Numbered from the stretch's first letter, positions 43,108 through 60,464 are shown. The stretch: 64,000 nucleotides of DNA from Bacteroidia bacterium (GCA_020847635.1 JADLBQ010000019.1:7686-71685); one strand, 5' to 3'. Translations and numbers: made by a program. Notes: generated by a model not told the origin, from the letters alone.

Positions 43108-44298
43108 ATGATTTCTGTTGAAAAAGCGAAAGCCCTGATTCTAAAAAATAGGGAAGTGCTAGGAGCTTCGAAACAACCGGTTGCTGATGCACAAGGTTGT
43201 GTGCTTGCAGAAAATATAAAAGCACCTGTTCATTTACCACCGTTCAATCAGTCTGCCATGGATGGCTATGCTGTTATCTGCTCAGATATTGAGAACAAGA
43301 AAAGAATAAAAGTAATTGGCAAAGTGGCAGCTGGGAAAGTCTTTAACCGTAAGATAAAATCTGGAGAGGCGGTACGTATTTTTACGGGAGCTCCTGTTCC
43401 TGCAGGAGCAGATGCTGTTATCATGCAGGAAAAAGTTACTTTTCAAAATGGTTATCTTATTGCCGGAGAAGTTCCATTAAAATTTGAAAATATCCGTAAA
43501 GCAGGATCGCAAATTAAGCAAGGAACGACAGCAATAAGTAAAGGCGTTGTGCTTACTCCCGGAAGCATAGGTTACCTTACCGCAATGGGAATCACTTCAG
43601 TAAATATTTTTACTGCACCACGGATAACAGTAATTATAACCGGCAGCGAGTTAAAGAAACCCGGAACTAAACTGAGGAGCGGACAAATTTATGAGTCTAA
43701 CTCCTATACGCTTGCAGCCGTTTTGAAGAGTATTGGAATACCAAAGGCAAAAATTATTTCCATACCTGACGATGAGTTGAAAACTGAACAGGCTTTGCAG
43801 AGAGCACTCACACATTCGGATATGATTCTGCTCACGGGCGGTATTTCTGTTGGCGATTACGATTTTGTTGGCAAGGCATTACAGAAATTACGTGTGAAAA
43901 ATATTTTTTACAAGATAAAGCAAAAGCCGGGTAAACCGCTGTTCTTCGGTAAGTATAACGAAACTCTTATTTTCGGATTGCCCGGAAATCCTGCTGCCGT
44001 GCTGAGTTGCTTTTACGAATATGTTTATCCTGCAATCAGGCTTATGCAAGGACATAAACAACCTTTTCTGAGAGTCGTATTTTTGCCTTTGCTGACTTCC
44101 TATCCCAAAAAGCCCGGACTTTCCTTTTTCCTTAAGGGGAAAATTGCCGCTCAAGGGGTAACACCCCTGACCGGACAGGAATCATATATTCTTCGTTCGT
44201 TTTCTGAAGCTGATTGCCTGATTTATCTTCCGGCAGAAACCGGTTATGTCAAAAAGGGAACAACAGTAGAGGTACACCTGCTGCCGGGATTGTATTAA
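43108..44298 (+). CDS. moeA: Molybdopterin molybdotransferase
   Basis: 396 aa. Motifs seen: PPFNQSAMDGYAV, GGISVGDYDF, GLPGNPAA. Confidence 0.9.
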   Translation: MISVEKAKALILKNREVLGASKQPVADAQGCVLAENIKAPVHLPPFNQSAMDGYAVICSDIENKKRIKVIGKVAAGKVFNRKIKSGEAVRIFTGAPVPAGADAVIMQEKVTFQNGYLIAGEVPLKFENIRKAGSQIKQGTTAISKGVVLTPGSIGYLTAMGITSVNIFTAPRITVIITGSELKKPGTKLRSGQIYESNSYTLAAVLKSIGIPKAKIISIPDDELKTEQALQRALTHSDMILLTGGISVGDYDFVGKALQKLRVKNIFYKIKQKPGKPLFFGKYNETLIFGLPGNPAAVLSCFYEYVYPAIRLMQGHKQPFLRVVFLPLLTSYPKKPGLSFFLKGKIAAQGVTPLTGQESYILRSFSEADCLIYLPAETGYVKKGTTVEVHLLPGLY

Positions 44299-44395
44299 TA
44301 TGGTTTATATCTGAAGTTGTTTTATACTAACCATTCTTAAACTTAAATTTGAAGCCTTTAAAATAAAAACACACCTTTAATCATCTGAAATAAAT

Positions 44396-45556
44396 ATGCA
44401 TAAAAGAATTCTTGATAAACTCATTTGCCCGAATTCAGGTACAACCGATTTAAAATTATATAGTGTGGAATTGACACGGCAGGATAAATCAGTAACAAAT
44501 TTGCAAGATGAAAATATTTTTCCGGATGATGATGTGAAGTCAGGAATAATTTATTCCTCAGACAAAAAATATGTATATGTTATTTGCGAATACATTCCTG
44601 TTTTATTAAATGATACTGATCAGGATCTGAATCACCTGAATAGCATAGTAACATTATTAAAAGACGATCTTCCCTCTGAATTGGCAGATGCGTTGCAGAA
44701 CACAAGCAACAGAATTGCTGCACAACACACTTCAGCAGATGGTGATTGGAATAGAGAAGAAATGAAATACTATGATGCAGCTGTAGATACAGAGAAGCAG
44801 AGAATAGATATGCTGAAATCTATTAAGACAGATAATCTCTGGAGGATATTCATTCCTCGTAAGCAAAAGATGATCAGGTTTCTTGAAAAAAACTGCAACG
44901 GTAAATGGATTTTTGAAATAGGATGTGGTAATGCCCGTACTATATCACGTATTTTCAATCCTGCAGAATATTCCTATAACTACATCGGTACTGATATCTC
45001 CTTCAAGAGACTGATAGTAGCTAAAATGGCCATACCCGGATCGGATTTTATTCAGGCAAGTGCTCTCAATATTCCGGTTAAAGATAACTTTTTTGATGCT
45101 GCCATCAGCTTTGGAATGTTACACCATCTGCCCCGTCCTACCGAAGCCATGAACGAAGTTGACAAGAAATTGAAGCATGAAGGTATTTTCACCTTGCATG
45201 AACCGGTATATACTTCGCGACAGTTTACAGAAAAACAAACTGCTGTTGTTCGGAAATTATTCAGAACATACGAACATAGCGATCATGACAATAAAATCAA
45301 TCTGAAGGAAACAACTGATACATTAGAAAAGTTGAATTATCAGATTCTTAATATATCGCCTTATAACTCACTTTTCAGAGTGGTTTACGAGGCTTTCATG
45401 AATCGTGTGTATAAATCATGGGATCGTAATGAGAGATTGACAAAAGCGGTGCTTGCCATTGACAATATCCTCTTGAACACGGTAGTGAAGCTTTCCAACA
45501 AACTTGGACCTCAGGCCATCACTATTACATCGGCAAAGAAGAATCAAACGAAATAA
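44396..45556 (+). CDS. Class I SAM-dependent methyltransferase with N-terminal Trm112-like segment
   Basis: 386 aa. SAM motif I is FEIGCGNARTI, with the post-I/II motif DAAISFGMLHHL. The N-terminal ILDKLICPNSG..L resembles Trm112-type modules (tentative). Confidence 0.65.
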   Translation: MHKRILDKLICPNSGTTDLKLYSVELTRQDKSVTNLQDENIFPDDDVKSGIIYSSDKKYVYVICEYIPVLLNDTDQDLNHLNSIVTLLKDDLPSELADALQNTSNRIAAQHTSADGDWNREEMKYYDAAVDTEKQRIDMLKSIKTDNLWRIFIPRKQKMIRFLEKNCNGKWIFEIGCGNARTISRIFNPAEYSYNYIGTDISFKRLIVAKMAIPGSDFIQASALNIPVKDNFFDAAISFGMLHHLPRPTEAMNEVDKKLKHEGIFTLHEPVYTSRQFTEKQTAVVRKLFRTYEHSDHDNKINLKETTDTLEKLNYQILNISPYNSLFRVVYEAFMNRVYKSWDRNERLTKAVLAIDNILLNTVVKLSNKLGPQAITITSAKKNQTK

Positions 45557-45630
45557 CTCATAATGACTAACTGGTAAAAAGCTGATTTCATCAGAAAATA
45601 TTTTAAAACCAGCCACCAGAGTATAGGAGA

Positions 45631-45818
45631 CAGGATTTTGATTTTCATTATTTCATCAGCTCATTAATTCGTTACAACCCCAGACGTTGTACCACATAAC
45701 CGGATCGTTGCTGAAGCTGATTGACTGATTTATATACCGTTTGAAACTGGTTATATCAAAAAAGGAACAACGGTAGAAGTGTATCCGTTGCCGGGTTTGT
45801 ATTAATATGATTTATATC
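45631..45818. repeat. Chimeric degenerate duplicate: (lptF/G start + TPR gene 3' end) fused to (moeA 3' end)
   Basis: 45631-45716 aligns without gaps to 41826-41911 (74/86 identical by hand count). 45711-45818 aligns without gaps to 44204-44311 (90/108). The two pieces join at a shared hexamer ctgaag. Both gene fragments carry premature stops (aaa>taa in the TPR fragment, tgc>tga in the moeA fragment). Confidence 0.85.
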
Positions 45819-46150
45819 ATTATTTCAAAAAAATAATCTCTGTTTTTTTACAGCCGTATTATTTGTTCCCTGCATATTAGAGAACAACATCAGGATGTAT
45901 GAGATTATTCAGCAAATTAATAATTGATATAAATTATAAAAATCAAAGAATGAATCAGAACTATAAATCTTTTCAGAGCTCAGAATAAAATCAGGCAGTA
46001 ACAGTTTGAATTTTTTTTGATAGCCGTTATGCCTATAAAAACATAACGCACATTCCTCTGAAATTCATTTGTAAGATTTATTGAAAGATTCCACTCTTAT
46101 GCAGTCAACCACATAGCTGAGAACAACAAAAAGGAATAAAAATAAATTAT

Positions 46151-48163
46151 ATGAAACTACACTTAACTCTCGTTGCTTTTCTGATACCCATTCTGACTTT
46201 ATCTCAAAAGCCGGAGGCATCCTCTTCTTCAGGTGATACTACAACATTAAGAAAGAATGTTTTTAAGCTCGGAGAAGTCACCATCACTGCGCGACATTAT
46301 GAAAAATTCTCCGACCAAATCAGCAAAAAAGAAATGGATGAACAGAATAAAATGGAGGTATCCCGTTCGATAAATATGTTATCGGGAGTAACTCTTACTG
46401 CTTCCGGTCAGCGAAACGAATCAATGGTTTCGGTAAGAGGGTTTGATTTGCGTGCTGTTCCTGTGTATATGGATGGCATTCCTGTTTATGTTCCTTATGA
46501 CGGTTATGTGGATTTAGCGCGTTTTACCACTTTTGATTTATCGGTGATTGATGTCTCAAAGGGGTTTTCTTCAATGTTGTATGGACCCAACTCATTAGGT
46601 GGAGCCATTAACCTCATATCATTGAAACCCGTTCAGAAAATTGAATACAACGGGTCTCTCGGTATGATCAATACCAATGGTTACAGAGGTAATGTGAATA
46701 TCGGCTCCAACTTAGGCAAAGTTTATATACAGGGAGGATTTTCTTATCTGCATCGCAATTCTTTTGTTCTGTCTAATAACTTTAAGCCACAGGCACATGA
46801 AAATGGCGGTGAGCGTGAAAATTCATTCCGCACCGATCACAAACTAAATCTTAAAGTTGGATGGACACCAAAGCAAAATCAGGAATATGTTTTGGGATAT
46901 ATCAATCAGCAGGGCGAAAAAGGAATTCCTGTTTATGCAGGTGATGACACACTGAATTCACTGCTTAAGAAACCACGTTATTGGCAAACTCCTTACTGGA
47001 ATAAAGAAACATTTTATTTTCTGTCAAACACTCAAATCAATGCTAAGAACTTTATTAAAAGCAGAATTTATTACGATATTTTCAAAAATGCATTTTACAG
47101 CTATGACGACTCAACTTATACCACTCAAAACAAACCTTACGCATTTCAAAGTTTTTACAATGATTATACCTATGGTGGCATTGTGGAATATGGCACCACA
47201 CTTATTCCGAAGAACGAGATTAAATTTTCTGTTCAGTATAAAACCGATGTTCACCGCGAAAACAATGTTGACGAACCTGTTAAACGTTTAGAAGATAACA
47301 CCATCAGCTTTGCTGCTGAAGATAATATCAGGATAAATAATCACCTTTTGATTGTTCCGGGAATAAGTTACGATATAAGAAAAAATATACAGGCAGATGA
47401 TTATAACAAAACCACAGATGAAATAACAGCATTTGAATCTGCTCCTGCCAAAGCTGCGTTCAATGCGCAGCTGGGAATATTTTATACCATGAATGATCAT
47501 CGGATTGGATTAAGTGTTTCGCATAAAACACGATTTGCCACCATCAAAGACCGTTACTCTTACCGAATGGGAACAGCCATTCCCAACCCGGAATTAAATC
47601 CTGAGTCAGCCAATAACTTTGAACTCAACTACACTGCGCACTTTACTGATAAAGTAAAATTAAAAACTGCTGTGTTTTACAGCAACATCAATGATATCAG
47701 TACCAGCATCAGCAATGTTGAGCCCGGAAAATCGCAAATGCAAAATGCAGGGAAAGCCGAAATAACAGGCGCAGAAGCTGATATAGGTTACCACGTTTTA
47801 AAAGATTTACTGCTCGGAGTAAATTACACTTACATTGAGAAACACAACCTTGCCAATCCTGAAATTTATATTACCGACATTCCCAAGTCCAAATTCTTTG
47901 GATATGTTCAGTATTCTCCCATCAAACAATTTAGCATTTTATGCAGTGGCGAATACAATTCATCCCGATACAGCACCAGTTACGGAACTTCCACAGCCGG
48001 TTTTGCTTTGTTCAACACCATTGTTGATGTGCGTGTTTGGAAATTTGCAAGTGTGGAAGCAGGTGTGAACAATGTTTTCGATAAGAATTATTCGTTGGTT
48101 GAAGGTTACCCCGAAGAAGGACGAAATTTTTTTGTAACACTTAAATTCTTTAATACAAAATGA
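46151..48163 (+). CDS. TonB-dependent outer-membrane receptor (small, BtuB/siderophore-receptor size class)
   Basis: 670 aa with a signal peptide. Plug-domain blocks: LGEVTITA, MLSGVTL...SVRGF, VYMDGIPVY. A beta-barrel with alternating aromatic pattern ends ..FFVTLKFFNTK. Its stop overlaps the next gene's ATG (ATGA at 48160-48163). Confidence 0.8.
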   Translation: MKLHLTLVAFLIPILTLSQKPEASSSSGDTTTLRKNVFKLGEVTITARHYEKFSDQISKKEMDEQNKMEVSRSINMLSGVTLTASGQRNESMVSVRGFDLRAVPVYMDGIPVYVPYDGYVDLARFTTFDLSVIDVSKGFSSMLYGPNSLGGAINLISLKPVQKIEYNGSLGMINTNGYRGNVNIGSNLGKVYIQGGFSYLHRNSFVLSNNFKPQAHENGGERENSFRTDHKLNLKVGWTPKQNQEYVLGYINQQGEKGIPVYAGDDTLNSLLKKPRYWQTPYWNKETFYFLSNTQINAKNFIKSRIYYDIFKNAFYSYDDSTYTTQNKPYAFQSFYNDYTYGGIVEYGTTLIPKNEIKFSVQYKTDVHRENNVDEPVKRLEDNTISFAAEDNIRINNHLLIVPGISYDIRKNIQADDYNKTTDEITAFESAPAKAAFNAQLGIFYTMNDHRIGLSVSHKTRFATIKDRYSYRMGTAIPNPELNPESANNFELNYTAHFTDKVKLKTAVFYSNINDISTSISNVEPGKSQMQNAGKAEITGAEADIGYHVLKDLLLGVNYTYIEKHNLANPEIYITDIPKSKFFGYVQYSPIKQFSILCSGEYNSSRYSTSYGTSTAGFALFNTIVDVRVWKFASVEAGVNNVFDKNYSLVEGYPEEGRNFFVTLKFFNTK

Positions 48164-48783
48164 AAAATATAAAAACACTTGCTCATTTAATTCTAATTAC
48201 TGCTGTTGCTTTTAACCTGACCATGTGCAACACAAGCCATGGAGATAAACGCAACAAAGCATCTGACACAACTATGGCCGCAGGATCTTTTAAAAATACG
48301 GATGCCTGCCTTGTGTCGGTGTCGGCAGAAGACAGTGCGAAATACATCAGCAAAAAGATTATTGTGAAGGGAGATGTTGAGCAACCGCTAACACTTACGG
48401 TAGATTCATTGAAAAAAATGAATGTGACGACAATTGAAAACTTTGTAGTTGTATGTCAGAGCGGTGCACGCATGAAAGAAGATAAAAGCTGCAAAGGCGT
48501 GTTGCTGAAAGACATTCTTGAAAAAGCAAAAATAAAACAGCAGGGACATAAGGATCGCAACTTTTATATTGTTGCAAGAGCAACAGATAATTACAAAGCT
48601 ACTTTTTCGTGGGGCGAAATTTTCAATAATCCAACCGGTGAAAATGTGTATGTGCTATTTGAAGAAAATGGTAAGCCCATCCAATCACAGGGCGACATGA
48701 TTCTGATTTCAAAAAACGACATCAAAACCGGACCACGCCATGTGTATTGGCTCAAAAGCATTGAAGTAAATCGTATAGAGTAA
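48160..48783 (+). CDS. Small lipoprotein with sulfite-oxidase-fold (molybdopterin-binding oxidoreductase-like) domain
   Basis: 207 aa with signal/lipobox ..AVAFNLTMC. Blocks resemble the Oxidored_molyb domain: VVCQSGARM (compare ECAGNRR with the Mo-ligand Cys), KGVLLKDIL, ATDNY, LFEENGKPI, PRHVYWLKSIEV. Confidence 0.5.
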   Translation: MKNIKTLAHLILITAVAFNLTMCNTSHGDKRNKASDTTMAAGSFKNTDACLVSVSAEDSAKYISKKIIVKGDVEQPLTLTVDSLKKMNVTTIENFVVVCQSGARMKEDKSCKGVLLKDILEKAKIKQQGHKDRNFYIVARATDNYKATFSWGEIFNNPTGENVYVLFEENGKPIQSQGDMILISKNDIKTGPRHVYWLKSIEVNRIE

Positions 48784-48799
48784 TGATTGAAGTGCATAC

Positions 48800-48817
48800 T
48801 TGAAATTTCTATTTCAA
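48800..48817. promoter_or_regulatory. Perfect 7-N4-7 palindrome TTGAAAT-TTCT-ATTTCAA upstream of the ModE-like gene
   Basis: It lies 17 nt after the lipoprotein stop and 82 nt before the ModE-like ATG. It could be an operator or a weak AT-rich terminator stem. Confidence 0.25.
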
Positions 48818-48898
48818 TTCTTCTTTCCGGCAGATGTGATTTAAGTCATACTTAGGAAGAATGCCGTTTTTTACTTTTACGATTTATTATAAAAAAGT

Positions 48899-49231
48899 AT
48901 GTTCACTATTAAAGGAACCATTTGGATTGAAAGTAAAAAAGGAGCTTTTCTGGGAAGCGGAAGAGTGTTGTTGTTAGAGAATATTAAAAAACATGGCTCC
49001 ATCACCACGGCTGCCAAAGCCATGAAAATGTCATACCGACAGGCATGGGAGCTGGTGAACTCAATGAACAAACAATCCAAATGGCCTTTGGTCGTTACAG
49101 CTTCAGGTGGTGCAGGAGGAGGCGGAACTGTTCTTACAAAAGAAGGTGAAAAAGCAATTTCCACTTTCAGAAAACTGCAGGAAAAATTTCATGCTTTTAA
49201 TGAGAAGGAGAGCAATAAACTAAAACTCTGA
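48899..49231 (+). CDS. ModE N-terminal-domain-type winged-helix regulator (no Mop/molbindin domains)
   Basis: 110 aa. GSITTAAKAMKMSYRQAWELVNSMN...VVTASGGAGGGGTVLTKEGEKAI parallels E. coli ModE GSISQGAKDAGISYKSAWDAINEMN...VERATGGKGGGGAVLTRYGQRLI. Confidence 0.75.
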   Translation: MFTIKGTIWIESKKGAFLGSGRVLLLENIKKHGSITTAAKAMKMSYRQAWELVNSMNKQSKWPLVVTASGGAGGGGTVLTKEGEKAISTFRKLQEKFHAFNEKESNKLKL

Positions 49232-49272
49232 TTTTTTTATTTGGCGTTATGGTATAAAATATATTACGGAGT

Positions 49273-50022
49273 ATGATTGATCAGTATCTTATTTGGGTTT
49301 TTATTCCACTGCTTTTTATTGTGGCATTTTTGTATGCTTCTATTGGCCATGGCGGTGCCAGCGGTTATCTGGCGTTGATGGCGCTTTTTGGTTTTCAACC
49401 CGAAGTAATGAAAGGTTCTGCATTGTTGCTGAATGTATTTGTATCTTTTATCTCCTTCTGGCAATATCGCAAAGGCGGACATTTCAGGTGGCAGTTATTC
49501 GTTCCGTTTATCATTACATCCATTCCGGCATCATTCATTGGTGCTTACTTAACCGTTGATGCTTTGGTTTACAAACGAATTCTTGGACTGCTTTTAATTT
49601 TTCCAATCCTCCGATTGTTTGGACTGATAGGAAAAGAAAGCGATCAGATTAAAGAGTTGAATAAAGTGATTGCTTTGATTACCGGTGCGGTTATCGGATT
49701 GCTCTCAGGCATGATTGGTATTGGCGGAGGAATTATTTTAAGTCCGGTAATTCTGTTGCTGCATTGGGGTAATATGAAACAAACGGCAGCGGTATCGGCA
49801 CTGTTTATTTTTGTGAATTCAATTTCTGGTCTGGCAGGACTTTACTCCAAAGGAATTGTTATGGATAATCAGGTTTACCTCTGGTTGCTGGTAGCCATCA
49901 GCGGAGGATTTGCCGGAGCGTATCTTGCAAGAAAAAAATTCAACAACAGGGTGCTTAAATCCATTCTTGCAACCGTATTGCTGATTGCCAGCATTAAACT
50001 GTTAACCGTTAGTGGCAAATGA
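49273..50022 (+). CDS. TauE/SafE (DUF81) family anion permease
   Basis: 249 aa with about 7-8 TM helices. It has duplicated G-rich motifs (IGHGGASGYLALMALFG; GIGGGIILSPVILLL). Its stop overlaps the mobA ATG (ATGA at 50019-50022). Confidence 0.7.
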   Translation: MIDQYLIWVFIPLLFIVAFLYASIGHGGASGYLALMALFGFQPEVMKGSALLLNVFVSFISFWQYRKGGHFRWQLFVPFIITSIPASFIGAYLTVDALVYKRILGLLLIFPILRLFGLIGKESDQIKELNKVIALITGAVIGLLSGMIGIGGGIILSPVILLLHWGNMKQTAAVSALFIFVNSISGLAGLYSKGIVMDNQVYLWLLVAISGGFAGAYLARKKFNNRVLKSILATVLLIASIKLLTVSGK

Positions 50023-50585
50023 AAAATTGTGTAACAGGAATTCTGTTGGCCGGTGGCAAAAGTTCGCGCATGGGAACAGATAAAGGAATGGTGATGCTGA
50101 ACGGGAAAAAACTTGCAGCGCATATTCTGGATGCAATGAAACCGGTAGTGGATTACCTGATTATTATTGCAAACAACAAAAATTATGATGCATTCGGTTA
50201 TTCTGTTTTCGGTGATGTGGTAAAAGACTGCGGGCCCATGGGTGGAATTTACACAGGACTGATAAACAGCAATACGAGAAAAAATTTAGTGCTGAGTTGC
50301 GACATGCCGTATGTGACTACCCAAATGTTGACATTTATACTTGCACATGCAGAAGAGGCAGAAATTATTTTACCTTCCGTTGAAGGAAATCCGGAACCAC
50401 TTTGTGCAGTTTATGATCAAACTTGCGCTGAAAAATTCAGAATGTTGATTGATAAAAGAGAATTAAAAATGCAGGATGCACTAAGACACTTTAAAACAAA
50501 AGAGTTGCCATTAACAAAAGAAGAAGCAGGAAATAATTTTATAAATATAAACACCTTTCAACAGTTAAACGCACAAAACACATAG
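50019..50585 (+). CDS. mobA: Molybdenum cofactor guanylyltransferase
   Basis: 188 aa. Motif GILLAGGKSSRMGTDKG. Confidence 0.85.
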   Translation: MKNCVTGILLAGGKSSRMGTDKGMVMLNGKKLAAHILDAMKPVVDYLIIIANNKNYDAFGYSVFGDVVKDCGPMGGIYTGLINSNTRKNLVLSCDMPYVTTQMLTFILAHAEEAEIILPSVEGNPEPLCAVYDQTCAEKFRMLIDKRELKMQDALRHFKTKELPLTKEEAGNNFININTFQQLNAQNT

Positions 50586-50589
50586 CAAC

Positions 50590-50817
50590 ATGATGCTGAA
50601 ATTTTTTGGACAACTTGCAGAGATTACCGGAAAAACTGAACTCAGTATTTCGCCTGAAGAAAATACCGAAGCAGTTATTAATAAAATGAAACAACAATTC
50701 CCAAAACTGAAAGAACAAACATTTCAGATAGCAGTGAACAGAATAATTGCTAAAGACAATCAGCAACTGGAGCCCGATAGTGAAATTGCATTTTTACCAC
50801 CATTTGCAGGAGGATAA
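50590..50817 (+). CDS. moaD: Molybdopterin synthase sulfur-carrier subunit
   Basis: 75 aa with a ThiS/MoaD fold and a C-terminal ..PPFAGG. The GGAGGA encoding the terminal Gly-Gly also forms an SD-like sequence 5 nt before the moeB ATG. Confidence 0.85.
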   Translation: MMLKFFGQLAEITGKTELSISPEENTEAVINKMKQQFPKLKEQTFQIAVNRIIAKDNQQLEPDSEIAFLPPFAGG

Positions 50818-50818: not shown

Positions 50819-51952
50819 ATGTTAAGCAAAGACGAAATAGCGCGATACAACCGTCATCTGCTGCTTCCTGAAATCGGAATGGAAGGGCAGCAAAAACTGA
50901 AGCAGGCCAAAGTATTGGTTATTGGTGCAGGGGGTTTGGGTAGTCCGGCTCTCAATTACCTCTGTGCTGCAGGTGTTGGTAAAATCGGTATTGTTGATTT
51001 CGATGTGGTTGACATATCGAACCTGCAGCGTCAGATTTTATATAACATTAACGATATAGGTAAATCAAAAGCTGAAACAGCAGCAGAAAAACTCCGCAAT
51101 CAAAATCCGTTCGTGGATGTGATTGTTCATGCAGTAAAACTCAGCAATCAAAATGCGCTGGAAATAATTAATGAATACGATATTGCCATTGACGGCACCG
51201 ATAATTTTTCGACACGTTATTTAGTTAATGATGCCTGTGTGATATTGAACAAGCCATTGGTATATGGTTCGGTGTATCGCTTCGAAGGGCAGGTTACTGT
51301 TTTTAATCATACAGACAAAAACGGAATTAAAAGTCCTACCTATCGTTGTCTTTTTCCAAAACCACCCGCACCTGAAACTGCACCCAATTGCTCACAAATA
51401 GGTGTGTTGGGTATTTTGCCCGGAATTATCGGAAGCCTACAGGTATGCGAAACCATTAAACTCATTACAGGTATTGAAAAAATACTTTCAGGCCATTTGC
51501 TTTTATTTAATGCACTCAACATGACTTTCGATACACTTCAGATTTTTCGTGATGAGGATGCAGTAAAAACTGCACCTCACAATTGCGAGGAATTTTTAAA
51601 ATTCAATTATGATTTTTTCTGTGGCTCTGTTTCAACATCAAAAACAATTACTGCAACTGAATTGAAGAATTGGATAAATGAAAAACAACCGCTGCAATTG
51701 CTTGATGTAAGAGAAAAAGATGAGCAGCCCGAAATTGAGGCATTGAACGATATACATATTCCGCTTGCTGCTATTAAAGCCCATACCGGCATGATTGCAC
51801 GTGATAAAAAAGTAATTGTGTTTTGCCAAAGTGGAATAAGAAGTAAAATTGCCATTGGAATATTAGAAAACAACTTTGGATTTAATAACCTCTACAACCT
51901 TGAAGGAGGTGTAATGGAATGGATGCAACTAACGGAATTTCAAAAAACATGA
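50819..51952 (+). CDS. moeB: Molybdopterin-synthase adenylyltransferase/sulfurtransferase (MoeB/ThiF domain + C-terminal rhodanese)
   Basis: The start is MLSKDEIARYNRHLLLPEIG at 50819; the ORF track's 50747 start overlaps moaD. Nucleotide loop GAGGLGSP. Rhodanese active site CQSGIRS. Confidence 0.85.
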   Translation: MLSKDEIARYNRHLLLPEIGMEGQQKLKQAKVLVIGAGGLGSPALNYLCAAGVGKIGIVDFDVVDISNLQRQILYNINDIGKSKAETAAEKLRNQNPFVDVIVHAVKLSNQNALEIINEYDIAIDGTDNFSTRYLVNDACVILNKPLVYGSVYRFEGQVTVFNHTDKNGIKSPTYRCLFPKPPAPETAPNCSQIGVLGILPGIIGSLQVCETIKLITGIEKILSGHLLLFNALNMTFDTLQIFRDEDAVKTAPHNCEEFLKFNYDFFCGSVSTSKTITATELKNWINEKQPLQLLDVREKDEQPEIEALNDIHIPLAAIKAHTGMIARDKKVIVFCQSGIRSKIAIGILENNFGFNNLYNLEGGVMEWMQLTEFQKT

Positions 51953-52398
51953 CAGCGAGAAAAAAACATAACGTATTTATTGAAGGAGCAATATCACCTG
52001 CTTTTATTGCCGATTCAATTGCCAAGCACAGCACCAAAACCAATATTGGTGCACACGATATTTTTTTAGGCCAGGTGCGCAAAGATGAAATCAATGGTAA
52101 AAATGTTTATGCCATTGAATATTCCACTTACACTGAAATGGCTGAAGAAAAATTTCATGAGATAAGAGAAGCGGCATTTTCAAAATTCGATTTAACGTGC
52201 ATGCATATTTATCACAGCAATGGTATAGTAAAAGCCGGAGAAATAAGTTTGTTTGTTTTTGTATCATCAGCTCATCGCAACGCTGCATTTGAAGCCTGCC
52301 GATGGATAGTTGAAGAAATAAAAGCCAATGTTCCGATTTGGGGTAAAGAAATTTTTGAAGACGAAACGTATCAATGGAAAGAAAATACTAACAAATAA
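51949..52398 (+). CDS. moaE: Molybdopterin synthase catalytic subunit
   Basis: The ATG overlaps the moeB stop (ATGA at 51949-51952). Motifs seen: [29 protein letters not shown]. Confidence 0.85.
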
Positions 52399-52403: not shown

Positions 52404-53312
52404 ATGGTTGACATCACACATAAAAACAACAGCTTACGCGAAGCAACAGCACAGGCAATAGTAAAAGTAAGCCGGGCAGAAACCATTGCCGCTATCAGAA
52501 ACAAAACCGTTCCCAAAGGCGATGTGTTTGAAATGGCAAAGACCGCAGGATTGTTTGCCGTAAAACGCACGAGCGATATGATTCCCGACTGCCATCCGCT
52601 GCCGGTTGAATTTGCAATGGTTAATTACCACATTCAGGATTTGGAAATACAGATTACCATGCAGGTGCGCACCGTGTACAAAACCGGAGTTGAAGTTGAA
52701 GTCATGCATGGTGCATCGGTGGTGGCACTCACCATGTATGATATGCTGAAACCGATTGATAAAGGGATTGAAATTCATTCTATAAAACTGCTTGAAAAGA
52801 AGGGAGGCAAATCTGATTTTACCGATAAGTTTAAAAAGGATTTAAAAGCAGCGGTGATTGTTTGTTCCGACAGCATATCGGCAGGAAAAAAAGAAGACAA
52901 AGCCGGCAAAGCCATTATTCAGAAATTAGAAAGTTGTAAAGTAACCGTTAGCGAATATTCCATCATTGCTGATGAACTTCAACAGATTCAAGAAAAGGTT
53001 AAATCACTGTGTAATAGAAATGATTTAATTCTGTTAACCGGAGGCACGGGACTTTCAACACGCGATACCACACCCGAAGCCATTCAACCATTGCTAGAAA
53101 GAGAAATACCGGGCATTATGGAAGCTGCCCGTAATTATGGTCAGCAGCGCACACCTTACTCCATGTTGTCGCGCGGTGTGGCCGGCATGATTGGCAGCAC
53201 ATTGGTGATTACTTTACCCGGTTCAACCAAAGGAGCAAAAGAATCTATGGATGCTTTGTTTCCTTCGGTGTTGCACATTTTCAGAATTATTGAAAACGCA
53301 CAACACGATTAA
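52404..53312 (+). CDS. moaC: Bifunctional MoaC (cyclic pyranopterin monophosphate synthase) / MogA-MoaB (MPT adenylyltransferase) fusion
   Basis: 302 aa. The N-terminal half has MoaC blocks ([22 protein letters not shown]; [21 protein letters not shown]). The C-terminal half has MogA blocks ([17 protein letters not shown]; [11 protein letters not shown]). Confidence 0.85.
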
Positions 53313-53323: not shown

Positions 53324-53713
53324 ATGATTATAACAGATTTTAAAGACAATTACCTGATGTATGAAAACATGCTCATCAGGGAATTTTCTTCATTTGAAGA
53401 ATTTTTAGGTGTGCATGAAATGCTCAAACAAATATTTTCAGATGAGTATGGTTTTACATACGAAGAGCGAAACAAACCCGGGAACAGCTTTAGCGATACT
53501 CCGGTAGAAGCTATAAATAAACTGCTGGATTACTTTGGCGATAAATACTTTTTTGTGTTCACCTTGAACGATGCACATTATTATTATTTGCTGGAATTAC
53601 AAGATAAAAAAATTATTAATTTTGGTATAGATTTAAAGACACTTGATGCGCGGAAGGTATATGTCCTTGAAATGGATAAGACAAAGGAGCTGAAGAGGTA
53701 TGATACAATTTAG
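53324..53713 (+). CDS. Hypothetical protein
   Basis: 129-aa ORF tightly packed after moaC/mog. No motif recognised. Confidence 0.45.
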   Translation: MIITDFKDNYLMYENMLIREFSSFEEFLGVHEMLKQIFSDEYGFTYEERNKPGNSFSDTPVEAINKLLDYFGDKYFFVFTLNDAHYYYLLELQDKKIINFGIDLKTLDARKVYVLEMDKTKELKRYDTI

Positions 53714-53722
53714 ATAAAGGAA

Positions 53723-54145
53723 ATGGCTGATCAGTCTGTCTGGAAGGAAAATCTGAAATACCACCGGTTTGTGGTATATGTAATTATCCTAATTTTTATC
53801 TGGTTAACTTACAATTTCAGTTCGGGCAACTGGAGTTACGAGAATGGTCAACCGAAAATAAGCGGACAAAAAGTTAATGGAAAGGACGAAGGCACCTGGA
53901 CCTGGTTTTACGAAAACGGGAAGAAGCGTATGGAAGGCGATTTTAATAATGGAAAGCGTAACGGCATTTGGACTATCTGGGACAGCACAGGTAATAAGTT
54001 AAGCGAAACCACTTATCAGAATGATAAACTCAACGGTAAATTCACCCGCTGGTATTCCAATGGAAGAATTGAAAGCGAAGGAACTTATAACAACGACACC
54101 ATTCATACCGTAACTTATTATAATACCGATGGCAGCAAAAAGTAA
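53723..54145 (+). CDS. MORN/YwqK-type repeat protein with N-terminal membrane anchor
   Basis: 140 aa with TM helix FVVYVIILIFIWL. It has repeats of the form NGK.EG.WT.FYENGKK..EG.F.NGKRNG.WT.W (YwqK 'toxin-antitoxin antitoxin' family repeat). Confidence 0.6.
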   Translation: MADQSVWKENLKYHRFVVYVIILIFIWLTYNFSSGNWSYENGQPKISGQKVNGKDEGTWTWFYENGKKRMEGDFNNGKRNGIWTIWDSTGNKLSETTYQNDKLNGKFTRWYSNGRIESEGTYNNDTIHTVTYYNTDGSKK

Positions 54146-54151
54146 GCATCC

Positions 54152-54643
54152 TCACTCAGGCAATTCAAATTCTGTTTCTCTTTCTTTTTGAGTAAACGTA
54201 TTTTTAAGTTTTATCTTCATAAAAGCAGTATCCCCTTTCTTAAAATGATACCTGTCGGTTACACGGCATTCGGTTTGATTTCCTTCTGCGTCTTTTTCAG
54301 TTATTAAATCACCGATGCGCGGCATAAAAGGATAACGAATGGTTAACTTTTCATCTTCAGTAAGAACCATAGGAAGTGCTGCTTCGAAGATAATTTCTTC
54401 AAATTTTTCAGCAAGTATTTCATCATTTATTTCTTTTCTGGCTTTGTCAGAAATAGCACCACTCCAGTCAAGCAGTTTATGTGTCGCTTCCTGCTTTAAT
54501 CTTTCGCGGATGTATTCAGGGAAAGGAGAGCGCAGGTGATCTGAGTCGGAAAACCAGAATTCAAAAGCCGCCTTCACCATTTCAGGTTCAATGTAATTTT
54601 GTGCATTAATTCGTTCTTCTATGGATTTCATTTCCTGAATCAA
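54152..54643 (-). CDS. Hypothetical acidic protein, last gene of the moaA-containing minus-strand operon
   Basis: 163-aa ORF starting 15 nt downstream of moaA. No motif recognised. Confidence 0.45.
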   Translation of the reverse strand: MIQEMKSIEERINAQNYIEPEMVKAAFEFWFSDSDHLRSPFPEYIRERLKQEATHKLLDWSGAISDKARKEINDEILAEKFEEIIFEAALPMVLTEDEKLTIRYPFMPRIGDLITEKDAEGNQTECRVTDRYHFKKGDTAFMKIKLKNTFTQKERETEFELPE

Positions 54644-54658: not shown

Positions 54659-55663
54659 TCAACCTCCGATGGCTACCATTGCACGGTTTTGTTCATGCAG
54701 TGTCGGGTTGCTATAATCTTCAAAAGTAGTCATGCCGCCACGGCTGGCCTTTTTATCCCAAACATTATTGCGTATAAGTTGTGTTATGTCCATTCTGTTT
54801 CGCAGTGCAGTGAGCAAATCGGTTTCGGAATTGGAGAACAAACAGTTTTTAATTTTACCATCAGCAGTAAGTCGCAAACGGTTGCAGGTATCACAGAACG
54901 GATTGGTAACCGATGAAATAATTGCAAATGTGCCTTTGTAATTTTTTATCCGATAGTTTTTTGCAGTGTCGTTTTTTGCATCTTCAATTTTCATTATGTT
55001 ATTTCCATAGTGTGCGTGTATATCTGCCATTACTTCATCATAGGAGCAGCCCTTACTCCAATCCCACTTGTTGCCGTTAAATGGCATAAATTCAATAAAG
55101 CGGTAATGCACTGGCTGATCTTTGGAAAATTCAATAAAATCTACCAGTTCATCATCGTTCATTCCTTTAATGATAACTGCATTGAGCTTTACATGAAAAT
55201 TGTTTTGCATCAGCAGCCGTATGTTTGAAATTACTTTGCTGAAATAATTTCGTCTGGTAATGGTATTGAATCGTTCTTCCTTCAGCGAATCCAAGCTAAC
55301 ATTAATGGATTTTACTCCACATGCCATAAAAGTTTCAATGAATGTATCAACTAAAATGCCGTTGGTTGTAATGGCTAATTCAACCGGCAATTGCGATAAA
55401 TCTTCAATAATTTCTTTTGCATCCTTACGCACCAATGGTTCGCCACCGGTTAGTCTTATTTTTTTTACGCCAAGGGCAACAAAAATTTTTGCAATTTGAA
55501 TTACTTCACTCCTTGTCATGAACTCAGCACGCGGGCGAAGCACAATACCCTCTTCCGGCATGCAATAGTTGCAGCGCAGGTTACATCGCTCAGTGAGCGA
55601 AATGCGCAGGTAATTGTGTACCCTTCCGAATTTATCAATCAATATGTTGGTTGCAGATGTCAT
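54659..55663 (-). CDS. moaA: GTP 3',8-cyclase (radical SAM)
   Basis: 334 aa. Radical-SAM motif CNLRCNYC. Auxiliary cluster CDTCNRLRLTADGKIKNC. C-terminal Gly-Gly. Confidence 0.9.
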   Translation of the reverse strand: MTSATNILIDKFGRVHNYLRISLTERCNLRCNYCMPEEGIVLRPRAEFMTRSEVIQIAKIFVALGVKKIRLTGGEPLVRKDAKEIIEDLSQLPVELAITTNGILVDTFIETFMACGVKSINVSLDSLKEERFNTITRRNYFSKVISNIRLLMQNNFHVKLNAVIIKGMNDDELVDFIEFSKDQPVHYRFIEFMPFNGNKWDWSKGCSYDEVMADIHAHYGNNIMKIEDAKNDTAKNYRIKNYKGTFAIISSVTNPFCDTCNRLRLTADGKIKNCLFSNSETDLLTALRNRMDITQLIRNNVWDKKASRGGMTTFEDYSNPTLHEQNRAMVAIGG

Positions 55664-56331
55664 TGATATTTGCTCATTTCTTTTTCAATTGCAGCAAACT
55701 CTTCTTTAGTTATATGTTTTTGGGCTAACGGAAATAGCGTATAGTCTTCACGGTAGATATGCAACTTCAGCAGTTCAATCAGTTCGCGTCCGTTTTCATA
55801 AGCCGTATCCAAAACAAATATCCGCGAAGTTTCATCTTTCAGCCGTGTAGCCAAACCGAGAAAATTAAAAGTAAGTGCACCCAACTGAATAAATTTGATG
55901 TGATCATCTTCCATTACATCAATTGCTGTTGGAGGATTTTTACCAATACCATGTTCACCAATCTCAATCAGCCGTTTGTGAAGCAGCGGAAAAAGTTCTT
56001 TTTCTTCTTTGCTGTTATGTGGAAGCAGGTTGTTATCAAAAAAATTAAAAAACTCTTTAAAGGTATCATTAATTGCTTTATCAAGTTTGTATCCATTGGT
56101 TTTAAACTGTACCAATGCTTTTTCGAACTTTTCAATTTTAGCAATGGCATTTTTATGTTCGTTCATAAAAATCTGAATCGGCTTTTCCATACTGTCGAAA
56201 TCAATGTCTACTTTGCCGGGTTGCTCATAAGCTGCAGGAGGATCCATTGGTGAGTTTTCCGTCTGTTCTAATCCTTTCTCCACATTGCGTTTCAGCGGAT
56301 CTGTTTTTGTTAAATGTTTTAAGTCTGCCAT
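55660..56331 (-). CDS. Hemerythrin-like (HHE cation-binding) domain protein
   Basis: 223 aa. His/Glu-rich helices: FMNEHKNAIAKIEKFE, HNSKEEKELFPLLHKRL, MEDDHIKF, LKLHIYREDYTLFP. Its stop overlaps the moaA ATG (ATGA on the minus strand at 55663-55660). Confidence 0.6.
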   Translation of the reverse strand: MADLKHLTKTDPLKRNVEKGLEQTENSPMDPPAAYEQPGKVDIDFDSMEKPIQIFMNEHKNAIAKIEKFEKALVQFKTNGYKLDKAINDTFKEFFNFFDNNLLPHNSKEEKELFPLLHKRLIEIGEHGIGKNPPTAIDVMEDDHIKFIQLGALTFNFLGLATRLKDETSRIFVLDTAYENGRELIELLKLHIYREDYTLFPLAQKHITKEEFAAIEKEMSKYQ

Positions 56332-56376
56332 ACCGTTATGTATTATTGCAAATTACGAAATAGTTTTTCAATTAAA

Positions 56377-56411: not shown

Positions 56412-57713
56412 TTATTGTAAAAAGTTTGGTTCCAGAATTACCATTAGGAAAGCCCAGTTTTGAGTAACCTTATAGTTTCCGCCTTTTAGTTCCTGCATGG
56501 TTCTGGTTGCAAACATTTGAGCATAGCCCAGCTGGACATTAACCTGCTGGCTAAGTGTATAATTGCAGGTTAGATCAACTTCAGTTCCAAGCTTGTTGTT
56601 CATTGCAGAAATCTGACCCGTAGTATGATACTTGTCGCTATCCAAGACCGGAGCTGCTGCCAAGAAGGAATGAATGGCTATAGCTGCCCACCAGCGTGAC
56701 TGGTAAAACTTCAATCTGAAATAAGCATCTTGCAGTCCGACACTGTTAAAATGGTTGTTAGCGTAGAAATAGTCGATCAGCCCGTTAAACTTGTGGCCTG
56801 CACCGTAATAGGCATTGAAGGAATGATTCACACCGGAATAGGCAGAGGAAGTGTCAGTCTGGCTCTGTCCGGAACTTTGCTCAAATCCAAGATCTATAAT
56901 TATGCTTTTTGTAATGGAGTAGCTTACTTCAGCTCCAATCAGGAAAGCTTTGACGTTTCTGATTTTCTTGTTTGTTACCGAAGTGAAATCATTACCGGTC
57001 TGGGCATACAAATTCAAGGCGCCAAACCACTTGTCGCTCCGGATTTCAGTATGTGTTCCAAAGGTTTGATGATAGCGGGTACTGTTGACGCTAACAGGTG
57101 ATTGCCGTCCATCATTTAGTAATAACAAACTGATATTAAAATTTTTCAGTTTTTTATTCAGCCAAAAAAACTGCATTTGTTTATAACCTGGGGTAACTGT
57201 ATAGGCAGTAGCAATTGCTGATTCAGCATTTTGGTTATATGCAAAGCCTACATGTGCTGAAAAGGTTGTATCCGTAAATTTAAATAGCAGTAAGTCATGG
57301 CTTTTTCCCTGATGAGACCAATTTCCTGGATCAAAGATTCTGATGTCATCGTATTTAAGCTCTTGTCTTCCGAACCGGGCAGAAACTTTTTTGCTGAAGA
57401 AATACTCAGCCCAGGATTGATGAAAGGAAGTGAGGCCATCGGAGATGACAGACTGAGGCTGACTTCCCCAGGTTCTAACATCCTGTAGGGTAATTCCAAT
57501 CCGGAATTTTTTAGATAAATAACCAAAATTCAGCCGGGTACGTTGCGATATAAAGGCAGTACCGCTTTCTGCAGAATCAATTAATGATTTAAAGCCGTGC
57601 CTGTATTCGAACCGGGGTCTAAGTTCACCGGTTAAAGTTGTTTGGGCATTAACCTTCTGAATGATAATGAATAGGACAGCAAGTTGAACATACGCTTTAA
57701 AAGTTATTTTCAT
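56412..57713 (-). CDS. Alginate-export-family (AlgE-like) outer-membrane beta-barrel porin
   Basis: 433 aa with a signal peptide (..IIQKVNAQ). It starts GELRPRFEYRHGF, has alternating beta-strand pattern throughout, and a C-terminal aromatic residue. The family call is from recalled resemblance. Confidence 0.55.
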   Translation of the reverse strand: MKITFKAYVQLAVLFIIIQKVNAQTTLTGELRPRFEYRHGFKSLIDSAESGTAFISQRTRLNFGYLSKKFRIGITLQDVRTWGSQPQSVISDGLTSFHQSWAEYFFSKKVSARFGRQELKYDDIRIFDPGNWSHQGKSHDLLLFKFTDTTFSAHVGFAYNQNAESAIATAYTVTPGYKQMQFFWLNKKLKNFNISLLLLNDGRQSPVSVNSTRYHQTFGTHTEIRSDKWFGALNLYAQTGNDFTSVTNKKIRNVKAFLIGAEVSYSITKSIIIDLGFEQSSGQSQTDTSSAYSGVNHSFNAYYGAGHKFNGLIDYFYANNHFNSVGLQDAYFRLKFYQSRWWAAIAIHSFLAAAPVLDSDKYHTTGQISAMNNKLGTEVDLTCNYTLSQQVNVQLGYAQMFATRTMQELKGGNYKVTQNWAFLMVILEPNFLQ

Positions 57714-57765
57714 GCACAGTATTTTAGGGAATAGCTTTGTTCAGGTGTTGAGTTAAATCGGAAGG

Positions 57766-58818
57766 TTATTTTCTAAACAACTTAAGCAGATTTGAAAGGA
57801 GTCCGATAAAGGCTGCCAACCAGGCAAGCAATGTTATATAAACAAAATACTGAGGAACCGGCAGCAAGAAATTGAGATGCATTGCCTGGGCCATTCTCAG
57901 AGTTGAAACAGTGTACATGCCCAGCGGGAACACAGCTCCCCAGTATAGCGGATCATAAGTGAGTGGAAATTTCTTTGCAATATGTCGCCAGGCTGCCAGA
58001 ATGAATAGCATGGGAAGCCACCAGGTACCGGTAACCCAGTAAAAAACAGTAAACCCTTTCAGAAAAGGCAACAACGATTCAAGGAAGGGTGCATGGTTAA
58101 CATGCAGGATGAGCATAGAACCGACAAGAGTTGAAATGGCCATAGCACCCATGTTAATCCAATAGGGTGGAGCCAAATCACTTGGAAGAAATTCAAAGAA
58201 CGTATAGCGATAAAAAATTAAAGATATCATCCAGATATACAGCATTCCTCCCCATAGCCACATTGAAAGAGCAAAGAAATTGGCCTGAAGTTTAAAAGGT
58301 TGTTCCCAGTGAGAAGCAACAAGAGTAGTAAGTACGGCTACAGCCTGAGTAGAGACAACAGCCAGGAGCCAGCCTCCGGTAATACCTTTTGCCAAAACAG
58401 GTTTTTTTTCTTTGATTGTTAACACTGTAAAAATAAGATAGGTCATTCCCACCCATAGAATCACACCAAGGATCCAAAGAATCTGAGCAATTCTGTAATT
58501 ATCAGCAATAATGATAAATTGGCCACCCACAATACAGGTTGCCGCTACTGCAGTAAAAAATCCCATTCCGGCCTGGTGATTATAAAGATCATCCAGAAAT
58601 AAGGCAGTGTATCTGAATAACCGGATTAGGTTTAAAATCCACAGAATAATAAAGGCAGCAATATTAAAAGCGAATAAAATAATTGCCAGTGTATGCATTT
58701 CTGACACCTCAGCAGCAACAGAAACGATACCCGTGGCCATAACCAGTCCAAAATAGGCAGGCGACAGCTGCTTAATACCCTCCCTGGCGTTTCTAAGGAA
58801 CCCCGATGATTCAGCCAT
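57766..58818 (-). CDS. TehA/SLAC1-family (tellurite-resistance/dicarboxylate transporter family) anion channel
   Basis: 350 aa with about 10 TM helices. The N-terminal LSPAYFGLVMATGIVS motif is typical of the family. Confidence 0.6.
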   Translation of the reverse strand: MAESSGFLRNAREGIKQLSPAYFGLVMATGIVSVAAEVSEMHTLAIILFAFNIAAFIILWILNLIRLFRYTALFLDDLYNHQAGMGFFTAVAATCIVGGQFIIIADNYRIAQILWILGVILWVGMTYLIFTVLTIKEKKPVLAKGITGGWLLAVVSTQAVAVLTTLVASHWEQPFKLQANFFALSMWLWGGMLYIWMISLIFYRYTFFEFLPSDLAPPYWINMGAMAISTLVGSMLILHVNHAPFLESLLPFLKGFTVFYWVTGTWWLPMLFILAAWRHIAKKFPLTYDPLYWGAVFPLGMYTVSTLRMAQAMHLNFLLPVPQYFVYITLLAWLAAFIGLLSNLLKLFRK

Positions 58819-58870
58819 TAATATTAAAATGCATTTGCAAATGTAAGTTTACGAATGTCAAATTGGTTTT

Positions 58871-60421: not shown

Positions 60422-60464
60422 TTGGATTCAAAGGCAAATAACTTGCTGAATTGCACATTTAATA

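Follow-up and report, generated by a model that had tools for sequence, protein, structure and literature searches.

A candidate ModE-regulated molybdenum acquisition module pairing a TonB-dependent receptor with a small lipoprotein of truncated sulfite oxidase fold

A 64,000-nt stretch of DNA from a Bacteroidia bacterium (GCA_020847635.1 JADLBQ010000019.1:7686-71685), here called the window, has a cassette of four genes at 46151-50022. They encode a TonB-dependent receptor (TBDR), a small lipoprotein with a truncated sulfite oxidase (SUOX) fold (mini-SUOX), a ModE-type regulator (ModE_N) and a TauE/SafE permease, and they lead into genes for molybdenum cofactor (Moco) synthesis. The TBDR and the mini-SUOX lipoprotein probably form a ModE-regulated outer-membrane molybdenum acquisition module. 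Several independent lines of evidence connect each of the two families, receptor and mini-SUOX, with molybdenum, and in the window they are joined under ModE-type operators. A sequence-only reading of the window had proposed a candidate envelope-spanning, non-ModABC route for molybdenum that the four genes could form. The molybdenum link is now much stronger than it first appeared because of operators, conserved gene neighborhoods, and independent molybdenum contexts of both families in other phyla; the independence from ModABC did not hold, and the four genes are not a fixed set.

ModE-Type Operators and the Regulator

The published ModE consensus is CGnTATATA-N6-TATATAnCG (PMC545781), and the layout of the operators found in the window is compatible with it. 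At no more than one mismatch, CGTTAT-N12-ATAACG occurs three times in the 64 kb, and all three 24-bp palindromes are directly upstream of molybdenum-related units, namely the receptor, TauE-mobA, and hemerythrin-moaA (Table 1). When two mismatches are allowed, the window has seven matches compared to 1.8 expected, and none of 100 shuffled sequences reached seven. The palindrome 20 bp upstream of modA in the E. coli K-12 genome is CGTTATATTGTCGCCTACATAACG, and the arms of operator 1 (CGTTAT and ACATAACG) are the same as its arms. These similarities suggest that the three sites are E. coli-type ModE operators, which would be bound by the 110-aa ModE_N protein. No Moco riboswitch was detected in the window at gathering thresholds or in 45400-50800 at E <= 5, and there was no convincing intrinsic terminator signal between the lipoprotein gene and ModE_N (z = -0.39).

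The 110-aa protein was initially described as the ModE DNA-binding domain without Mop domains, which agrees with its match to TIGR00637 (E 4.8e-25; 87.5 bits, under the curated cut-off of 98.5) and with the lack of Mop or TOBE domains in it. No ORF (open reading frame) with a TOBE domain is present in the window or in related Bacteroidota loci. In a phmmer search of PDB, it matched 2ijl (E 2.5e-16) and E. coli ModE (1o7l/1b9m, E 4e-14; ModE residues 13-92). Other regulators are also made up solely of the ModE DNA-binding domain, and how they sense molybdenum is unclear (PMC545781). Like the E. coli ModE-modABC regulon, the window has a ModE winged-helix domain, a 24-bp operator layout with identical arms, and uptake and Moco genes that apparently belong to one regulon. 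Unlike that regulon, its regulator has no Mop domain, its uptake genes encode a receptor, a lipoprotein, and TauE instead of an ATP-binding cassette (ABC) transporter, and no modABC is in the window.

For comparison, 94 Bacteroidota loci were mapped with the window proteins; they form 55 groups at 90% identity, and 32 non-redundant loci are flanked by 3 kb or more on each side ("well-flanked"). CGTTAT-N12-ATAACG in its exact window form is absent from the related Bacteroidota loci; an operator was seen in the relatives only once the motif was generalized to a palindrome with a TAT...ATA core. Many of these loci have a 24-bp palindrome, C-NN-TAT-K-C-N8-R-CATA-NN-G, located 15-135 bp upstream of the ModE_N, TBDR, or lipoprotein gene. 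It has a conserved TAT(G/T)C...(G/A)CATA core with symmetric variation at positions 2-3 and 22-23 (for example, CAGTATTCATTTTAAAACATACTG in Flavobacterium). Its density is 0.90 per kb in windows upstream of cassette genes and 0.008 per kb elsewhere, which is an approximately 100-fold difference (744 kb of non-redundant loci).

Separately, Chryseobacterium-type operons that have no ModE box upstream of moaA have an FNR/CRP-like palindrome there (TTTTGTTCGGAAC..TCAACAAAG; Table 1).

Gene Neighborhoods in Bacteroidota

Gene neighborhood statistics had been proposed as a check on the cassette. The lipoprotein gene is beside ModE_N, TBDR, TauE, or Moco genes in 27 of the 32 well-flanked non-redundant loci. 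Within 6 kb of it, TBDR was found in 14 loci (all with ModE_N), ModE_N in 17, TauE in 10, and Moco genes in 17. Dozens of independent loci show the arrangement, which is more than chance would give. As a cassette, however, the set of four is not fixed, and all four genes occur together only in the window and in one other locus (L001). The conserved units are ModE_N, TBDR, and lipoprotein on one hand, and TauE inside moeA-...-mobA on the other.

Several architectures are recurrent. In F. johnsoniae and Sphingobacteriales, ModE_N-TBDR-lipoprotein stands alone in otherwise unrelated surroundings, and a two-gene ModE_N-lipoprotein unit also recurs. Moco-linked arrangements include moaA-moeA-lipoprotein-TauE-mobA... 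(or TauE ahead of the lipoprotein gene), the Chryseobacterium-type order moaA-lipoprotein-moeA-ModE_N-mobA-TBDR-moeB..., and narGHJI-hemerythrin-ModE_N-lipoprotein. Many Flavobacterium have ModE_N, a non-orthologous 851-aa TBDR, and then the lipoprotein gene. This TBDR (L056 7414-9969; L061 7415-9970) is unrelated to the window receptor and still lies behind a ModE-type box; it is a non-orthologous replacement of the receptor.

Passage of molybdate through the outer membrane is generally ascribed to porins, and in textbooks uptake begins with ModA. ModA, ModB, and TupA-like genes are missing from the 64-kb window, as first reported; the tblastn probes (E. coli ModA/B/C, Deinococcus modA, and a TupA-like substrate-binding protein, SBP) gave only generic ABC ATPase similarity (26986-28281). 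The label "non-ModABC" is nevertheless not borne out, as E. coli ModA/B/C probes identified modABC in the same locus in two relatives. In Chryseobacterium aurantiacum (L004) it directly follows the Moco genes, and in L070 it is approximately 7 kb downstream of the lipoprotein gene. Therefore, the module would complement an inner-membrane importer by adding an outer-membrane step and would not be a replacement for it.

TauE in the window matches PF01925 (128.4 bits, cut-off 32.6; residues 12-243). Its position between moeA and mobA is kept in many Bacteroidota, even in loci without the lipoprotein gene. To our knowledge, no bacterial TauE protein has been shown to carry molybdate. In rice, the TauE-family protein OsDISMO1 transports molybdenum (PMC12227400). 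OsDISMO1 belongs to the same Pfam family as the window TauE and its molybdenum transport is experimental, but it is eukaryotic and its direction of transport is unresolved. With this precedent and the stable place of its gene in Moco operons, TauE is probably an inner-membrane molybdenum permease.

The TonB-Dependent Receptor Family

TonB-dependent metal receptors include ZnuD, OprC/NosA, and CntO, and molybdenum-catecholate uptake is known in Azotobacter. The proposed module is similar to these in principle, as a scarce metal would be imported through the outer membrane at the expense of energy, with a regulator specific for that metal in control. It differs in that no metallophore biosynthesis genes recur near the cassette, and a molybdenum-metallophore pathway with its own biosynthesis genes was rejected for this reason.

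The window receptor has Plug and barrel matches, in agreement with its first description as a small TBDR. Plug PF07715 scored 67.5 bits (cut-off 23.9; residues 55-152), barrel PF14905 scored 48.3 bits, and the NCBIfam TonB-hemin and TonB-siderophore models align over residues 42-665. The N-terminus is hydrophobic and has GEVTITA at residues 41-47, which by eye may represent a signal peptide and TonB box. None of the characterized TBDR subfamilies (BtuB, CirA, heme, siderophore, copper) matched at the equivalog cut-off; the best subfamily score was 115 bits compared to a cut-off of 317 (TonB-hemin), and BtuB scored 83 compared to 600. PDB matches were partial (E 8e-18 or weaker). The receptor is 60% identical to its F. 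johnsoniae counterpart and 33-35% identical, over the full length, to receptors preceded by ModE boxes in P. aeruginosa and E. coli.

The system extends beyond Bacteroidota, with relatives in Pseudomonas and other Proteobacteria. In P. aeruginosa (L103, CP109682.1, 3894-6456), a TBDR 33% identical to that of the window overlaps a mini-SUOX gene whose product is 37% identical and keeps the Cys at the molybdenum-ligand position. The mini-SUOX partner appears to be soluble and periplasmic. The pair adjoins moaA-ppiC-narIJHG, and a perfect ModE box (CGTTATGTAAAAAAATACATAACG) is 15 bp upstream of the TBDR gene. CP109682.1 is labeled as a plasmid yet carries dauBAR and nar genes, which we take to be chromosomal in PAO1.

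In E. coli (L109, NZ_AP026904.1 110302-122131), a perfect box (CGCTATATGTGTAAGTATATAGCG) is located at 365-388, and an operon starts 25 bp further on. The gene order is SBP, MolB-like permease, ATPase, S-adenosylmethionine (SAM) methyltransferase, ModD (504 bits), and TBDR. The receptor at the operon end is 34% identical to the window receptor and 45% identical to the Pseudomonas receptor. The best PDB match of the permease is HI1471/MolB (E 4e-63), and the SBP weakly matches HI1472. HI1470-HI1472 is MolBC-A, the type II ABC importer of Haemophilus influenzae for molybdate/tungstate. Thus, the E. coli receptor homologue is co-operonic with an HI1471-like permease, a weakly HI1472-like SBP, and ModD, whereas the window has no such ABC system and the receptor partners there are the mini-SUOX lipoprotein and TauE. 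The window also has a methyltransferase gene; its product has no homology to the E. coli operon methyltransferase by BLASTP. The E. coli locus is between treA and ymgE in 2150 of 5426 complete genomes (40%), and its annotation is only generic (iron ABC transporter, TonB-dependent receptor). Paracoccus and Azospirillum have ModE-like boxes 41-42 bp upstream of receptor-family units, with one mismatch to CGNTAT-N12-ATANCG.

These contexts bear on the possibility that the TBDR imports an iron chelate, heme, or cobalamin and that its proximity to molybdenum genes is incidental. Its weak best matches are CirA, BtuB, and heme receptors, and its homologues in E. coli and Paracoccus are beside FecCD-type transporters with iron annotation. 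However, all matches to characterized subfamilies are far under their cut-offs, and the linkage of receptor, lipoprotein, and ModE_N is conserved: all 14 TBDR-bearing well-flanked non-redundant loci also carry ModE_N. Receptors of this family follow ModE boxes not only in Bacteroidota but also in Pseudomonas, E. coli, Paracoccus, and Azospirillum, and the E. coli transporter is closest to MolB in an operon that includes ModD. We consider an unrelated receptor very improbable.

The Mini-SUOX Lipoprotein

The SUOX fold that was first assigned to the lipoprotein is confirmed by Pfam (Oxidored_molyb PF00174, 33.3 bits, cut-off 24, E 4e-8) and Foldseek. A word-indexed search found 518 homologues that are 60-72% identical across several Bacteroidota lineages, and their source names are "molybdopterin-dependent oxidoreductase" or "hypothetical." The N-terminus is hydrophobic and is followed by Cys23, which is invariant across 44 aligned homologues; therefore, it is predicted to be a lipoprotein signal. 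The signal peptide and Cys23 are followed by a disordered variable linker (28-54) and a truncated SUOX-fold domain of approximately 150 aa. The blocks VVCQSGARM, KGVLLKDIL, and PRHVYWLKSIEV, which had suggested the fold, are highly conserved in the 44-sequence alignment. C99, H130-V138, W151, N156, N157, G191, H194, and W197 are invariant, and P192 and R193 are nearly so.

In the AlphaFold2 model, the core is confident and the linker is disordered. The top Foldseek match is PruR (7kom, E 3.7e-7, TM 0.74, target-normalized), and 7kp2 and 7kou also matched. SorA, SoxC, nitrate reductase, sulfite oxidase, and YedY matched with probability 1.0 but with target-normalized TM of 0.23-0.40. The core of approximately 150 residues is a quarter to two-fifths of true SUOX enzymes and three quarters of PruR. 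Because of the TM of 0.74 to PruR compared to 0.23-0.40 to the enzymes, we consider the lipoprotein a truncated SUOX fold like PruR. By hhalign, Cys99 (in VVCQSG) aligns with the molybdenum-ligand Cys of E. coli MsrP (YRMRCVEAW), with an alignment probability of only 6.8%. Going by position alone, N134, Y136, and W197 may correspond to the H-bonding Asn and the pterin-stacking Tyr and Trp of PruR. PDB sequence searches gave no true hits, and no match to PruR, with the lipoprotein profile (E <= 1 and <= 10) or with a proteobacterial relative (E <= 10).

The mini-SUOX family is widespread. A profile search of 1.84 billion representatives gave 754 clusters at E <= 0.001 (381 at E <= 1e-10), and those inspected were mostly secreted proteins of 160-210 aa. 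Many relatives have their own molybdenum context. In relatives of Polynucleobacter, mini-SUOX is encoded in an operon with a TupA-like SBP and a 72-aa Mop protein, and Deinococcus has a modA-TOBE-miniSUOX-permease operon. Burkholderia/Caballeronia have a miniSUOX-NifQ-ModE_N operon with ModE-like boxes approximately 41 bp upstream; the mini-SUOX protein there keeps the Cys and has no signal peptide (L104 6043-7560; L107 4962-6466). One member (P0342) is fused to a ModA-type molybdate-binding protein (196 bits), and another (P0255) is a cytochrome c fusion that keeps the Cys. In all, a Cys at the molybdenum-ligand position is present in Bacteroidota, Pseudomonas, Burkholderia, and cytochrome-fusion members.

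Three smaller observations concern these relatives. A di-TOBE protein is encoded near the Burkholderia/Caballeronia operon in L104. P0305 combines a Plug domain with the C-terminal end of mini-SUOX, possibly as a chimera of gene calling. The gene for GTP cyclohydrolase I (FolE), with which pterin synthesis begins, is beside a TupA-like/Mop/mini-SUOX operon (L006 10735-11433, minus strand); this was seen once, in a metagenome-assembled genome of Pseudomonadota.

PruR of Agrobacterium and Vibrio (PDB 7kou, 7kom, 7kp2) is Sec-exported, has the molybdenum-ligand Cys replaced by Trp (Pro-Trp motif), and binds pterins (PMC11194511). It is encoded with DcpA-type cyclic di-GMP enzymes (GGDEF/EAL) or DTB sensor kinases (PMC11194511). 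Like the lipoprotein, it is small and consists almost entirely of the truncated SUOX fold, with no catalytic partner domains. The lipoprotein may instead be an extracytoplasmic PruR-like protein that has kept the molybdenum-ligand Cys and therefore has molybdopterin, Moco, or a related pterin as its ligand, with the receptor importing the ligand for salvage or with the protein acting as a sensor. PruR being the top structural match, the invariance of Cys99 in the Bacteroidota family and its alignment with MsrP, the location of the genes within Moco operons, and the GTP cyclohydrolase I gene at one proteobacterial locus are in favor of pterin or Moco capture. Nevertheless, carriers have a complete de novo Moco pathway next door, which makes salvage unnecessary, and ModE senses molybdate and not Moco. 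The other partners of the family (ModA fusion, TupA-like SBP, Mop, NifQ, modA operon) act on the oxyanion or on Fe-Mo clusters and not on pterins. In addition, the hallmarks of PruR are missing: the family keeps an invariant Cys instead of Trp, its partners are TBDR, ModE_N, TauE, and Moco genes, and no DcpA-type GGDEF/EAL or sensor-kinase neighbor was found in the window or the 94 related loci. We regard pterin or Moco capture as unlikely.

Known periplasmic enzymes of the SUOX family receive Moco while still in the cytoplasm, and the twin-arginine translocation (Tat) system then exports them. A twin-arginine motif is absent from the lipoprotein N-terminus (MKNIKTLAHLILITAVAFNLTMC) and from every homologue N-terminus shown (22 of the 44 aligned sequences). 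Because the signal is of lipoprotein type without this motif, a cofactor-free binding protein is favored over a Tat-exported Moco enzyme. The lipoprotein could still be a small periplasmic Moco oxidoreductase, acting for example on sulfite or sulfoxide, with TauE exporting sulfite or another anion and the receptor as a bystander; the need of the enzyme for Moco would then be the sole reason for the place of the genes in the Moco operon. The Pfam family and source names, the conserved molybdenum-ligand Cys, the relative fused to cytochrome c (as in SorAB-type enzymes), and the nominal function of TauE as a sulfite exporter are consistent with an enzyme. However, the cytochrome c fusion must itself be Sec-exported, the domain of only approximately 150 residues has low TM against the enzymes, and no redox-partner or other partner gene is conserved beside the lipoprotein gene in the related neighborhoods. 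An enzyme would also leave the ModE boxes of the receptor and the ModA fusion, Mop, and NifQ partners unexplained. A periplasmic molybdoenzyme is therefore quite improbable in our judgment.

Proposed Mechanism and Significance

In the molybdenum acquisition module that we favor, the receptor would bring a molybdenum species across the outer membrane on TonB energy. The imported species would most probably be molybdate (or tungstate), possibly complexed. The Sec-exported, lipid-anchored mini-SUOX protein would bind it at the receptor or in the periplasm and then pass it on. An inner-membrane carrier, most likely the TauE encoded between moeA and mobA here and also ModABC in relatives, would deliver molybdenum to the cytoplasm near MoeA, which inserts molybdenum into molybdopterin. 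Binding of ModE_N to the three operators would place the receptor-lipoprotein, TauE-mobA-moaD-moeB-moaE-moaC, and hemerythrin-moaA units under its control.

Receptor-lipoprotein pairs such as BtuB-BtuG and SusC-SusD are known in Bacteroidota, where the lipoprotein captures the ligand for the receptor. The window is similar in having a receptor gene followed by an overlapping lipoprotein gene (the TGA and ATG share ATGA, as first noticed), and its lipoprotein would also be expected to capture ligand. It differs in that the lipoprotein is mini-SUOX and not beta-propeller or TPR-like, the receptor is a small 22-strand protein without SusC extensions, and the regulator and associated metabolism are different. 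In Pseudomonas, as noted above, the partner is apparently soluble instead of lipid-anchored.

Several points weigh against a molybdenum acquisition module. Molybdenum responsiveness is assumed from the operator alone, since the regulator is Mop-less and no TOBE protein is encoded nearby. Moco operons that have the lipoprotein and TauE yet no nearby ModE_N also have no ModE box. The closest solved structure, PruR, binds pterins rather than oxyanions, and the cytochrome c fusion hints at redox chemistry and not simple binding. The Cys is missing from the mini-SUOX proteins linked to TupA/Mop, Deinococcus modA, and the ModA fusion; therefore, it is not a universal molybdate ligand. Receptor homologues at 31-35% identity adjoin iron-annotated FecCD-type transporters, as in E. 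coli and Paracoccus, and a shared substrate is not guaranteed. Finally, molybdate is small enough for porins, so the need for a TBDR is not self-evident.

A full-text literature search identified no molybdenum-related TonB receptor, no characterized molybdenum receptor under ModE control, and no account of this mini-SUOX family; only PruR surfaced. If a ModE-controlled receptor family exists, it would add an energized first step to molybdenum uptake and would explain how nitrate reductase and other molybdoenzymes are supplied in waters and soils with nanomolar molybdenum. The findings suggest a function for hundreds of clusters (754 at the looser threshold) that are now annotated "molybdopterin-dependent oxidoreductase," and they make molybdate a candidate substrate of bacterial members of the TauE family, which is poorly understood. 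They also draw attention to an unstudied ModE-box operon present in 40% of complete E. coli genomes. Carriers include the genetically tractable F. johnsoniae, P. aeruginosa, and E. coli. A bolder version is possible but doubtful: mini-SUOX may be a cofactor-free molybdenum-binding module derived from the Moco pocket of SUOX, with the molybdenum-ligand Cys still used in this branch; with the lipoprotein, the receptor may be the first dedicated, TonB-energized, ModE-controlled molybdenum route across the outer membrane, extending from Bacteroidota to Pseudomonas with the E. coli operon as a sister system; and TauE may be the first bacterial TSUP molybdate importer.

Other Features of the Window

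The four cassette ORFs of the sequence-only reading were recovered from the ORF list at the same positions (Table 1). The TauE stop codon overlaps the mobA ATG, as had been reported, and mobA, moaD, moeB, moaE, and moaC follow in the expected order, with a moaC-MoCF fusion as the last gene. NarG was thought to adjoin the cassette, but the NarG fragment (63191 to the window end) is approximately 13 kb away, past moaA and a nitrate-transport cluster.

TABLE 1. Genes and operators of the molybdenum-related region. Positions are those of the window unless a related locus (L) is named.
Feature	Position	Strand	Evidence and remarks
moeA (molybdopterin molybdotransferase)	43108-44298	+	NF007960, 352 bits; upstream of cassette
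ModE-type operator 1 (CGTTATGCCTATAAAAACATAACG)	46025-46048	.	Perfect CGTTAT-N12-ATAACG; 103 bp upstream of TBDR start codon
TBDR, 670 aa	46151-48163	+	Plug and barrel domains
Mini-SUOX lipoprotein, 207 aa	48160-48783	+	Pfam PF00174, alignment, AlphaFold2 model, Foldseek
ModE_N-only winged-helix regulator, 110 aa, without Mop domains	48899-49231	+	TIGR00637, PDB matches
ModE-type operator 2 (CGTTATGGTATAAAATATATTACG)	49245-49268	.	One mismatch; ends 5 nt before TauE start codon
TauE/SafE (TSUP) family permease, 249 aa	49273-50022	+	PF01925
mobA	50019-50585	+	Pfam/NCBIfam, ORF list, gene calls
moaD	50590-50817	+	Pfam/NCBIfam, ORF list, gene calls
moeB	50819-51952	+	Pfam/NCBIfam, ORF list, gene calls
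moaE	51919-52398	+	Pfam/NCBIfam, ORF list, gene calls
moaC-MoCF fusion	52404-53312	+	Pfam/NCBIfam, ORF list, gene calls
moaA	54659-55663	-	Pfam, gene calls; downstream of Moco operon, opposite strand
Hemerythrin/RIC-like gene	55660-56331	-	Pfam, gene calls; overlaps moaA as a single unit
ModE-type operator 3 (CGTTATGTATTATTGCAAATTACG)	56334-56357	.	One mismatch; 3 nt upstream of hemerythrin start, minus strand
FNR/CRP-like palindromes	L067 8770-8793; L073 8510-8533; L086 8767-8790		Upstream of moaA in Chryseobacterium-type operons

The hemerythrin-moaA pair recurs in many related loci, in some of them after narGHJI, which suggests that the Fe-S clusters of MoaA are protected or repaired in this way during nitrate respiration. 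On the far side of moaA (56412-61250, minus strand), the window has a cluster encoding an Alginate_exp-like outer-membrane porin, a SLAC1/TDT channel, a NarK-like major facilitator superfamily (MFS) carrier, and a Crp/Fnr regulator; a cytochrome c gene and the start of NarG are also on that side. Genes for the SLAC1/TDT channel and the MFS carrier accompany the Moco operon in L003, L005, L071, L077, L081, and L082.

The 3' end of moeA (approximately 100 nt), together with the 12 nt that follow the stop codon, is duplicated (44201-44311 and 45708-45818; 83% identity over 111 nt). The second copy, downstream of a SAM-methyltransferase gene (44396-45556), still reads FETGYIKKGTTVEVYPLPGLY*. Because the two moeA-end repeats flank it, the methyltransferase gene looks inserted between moeA and the receptor gene. 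Three small ORFs follow moaC at 53324-54643, encoding proteins of 129 aa (no family match), 140 aa (MORN-repeat), and 163 aa (minus strand), and ORFs of similar size follow moaC in another Bacteroidota contig. Elsewhere in the window are a tmRNA gene (28466-28862, plus strand) and a tRNA gene (9606-9679, minus strand).

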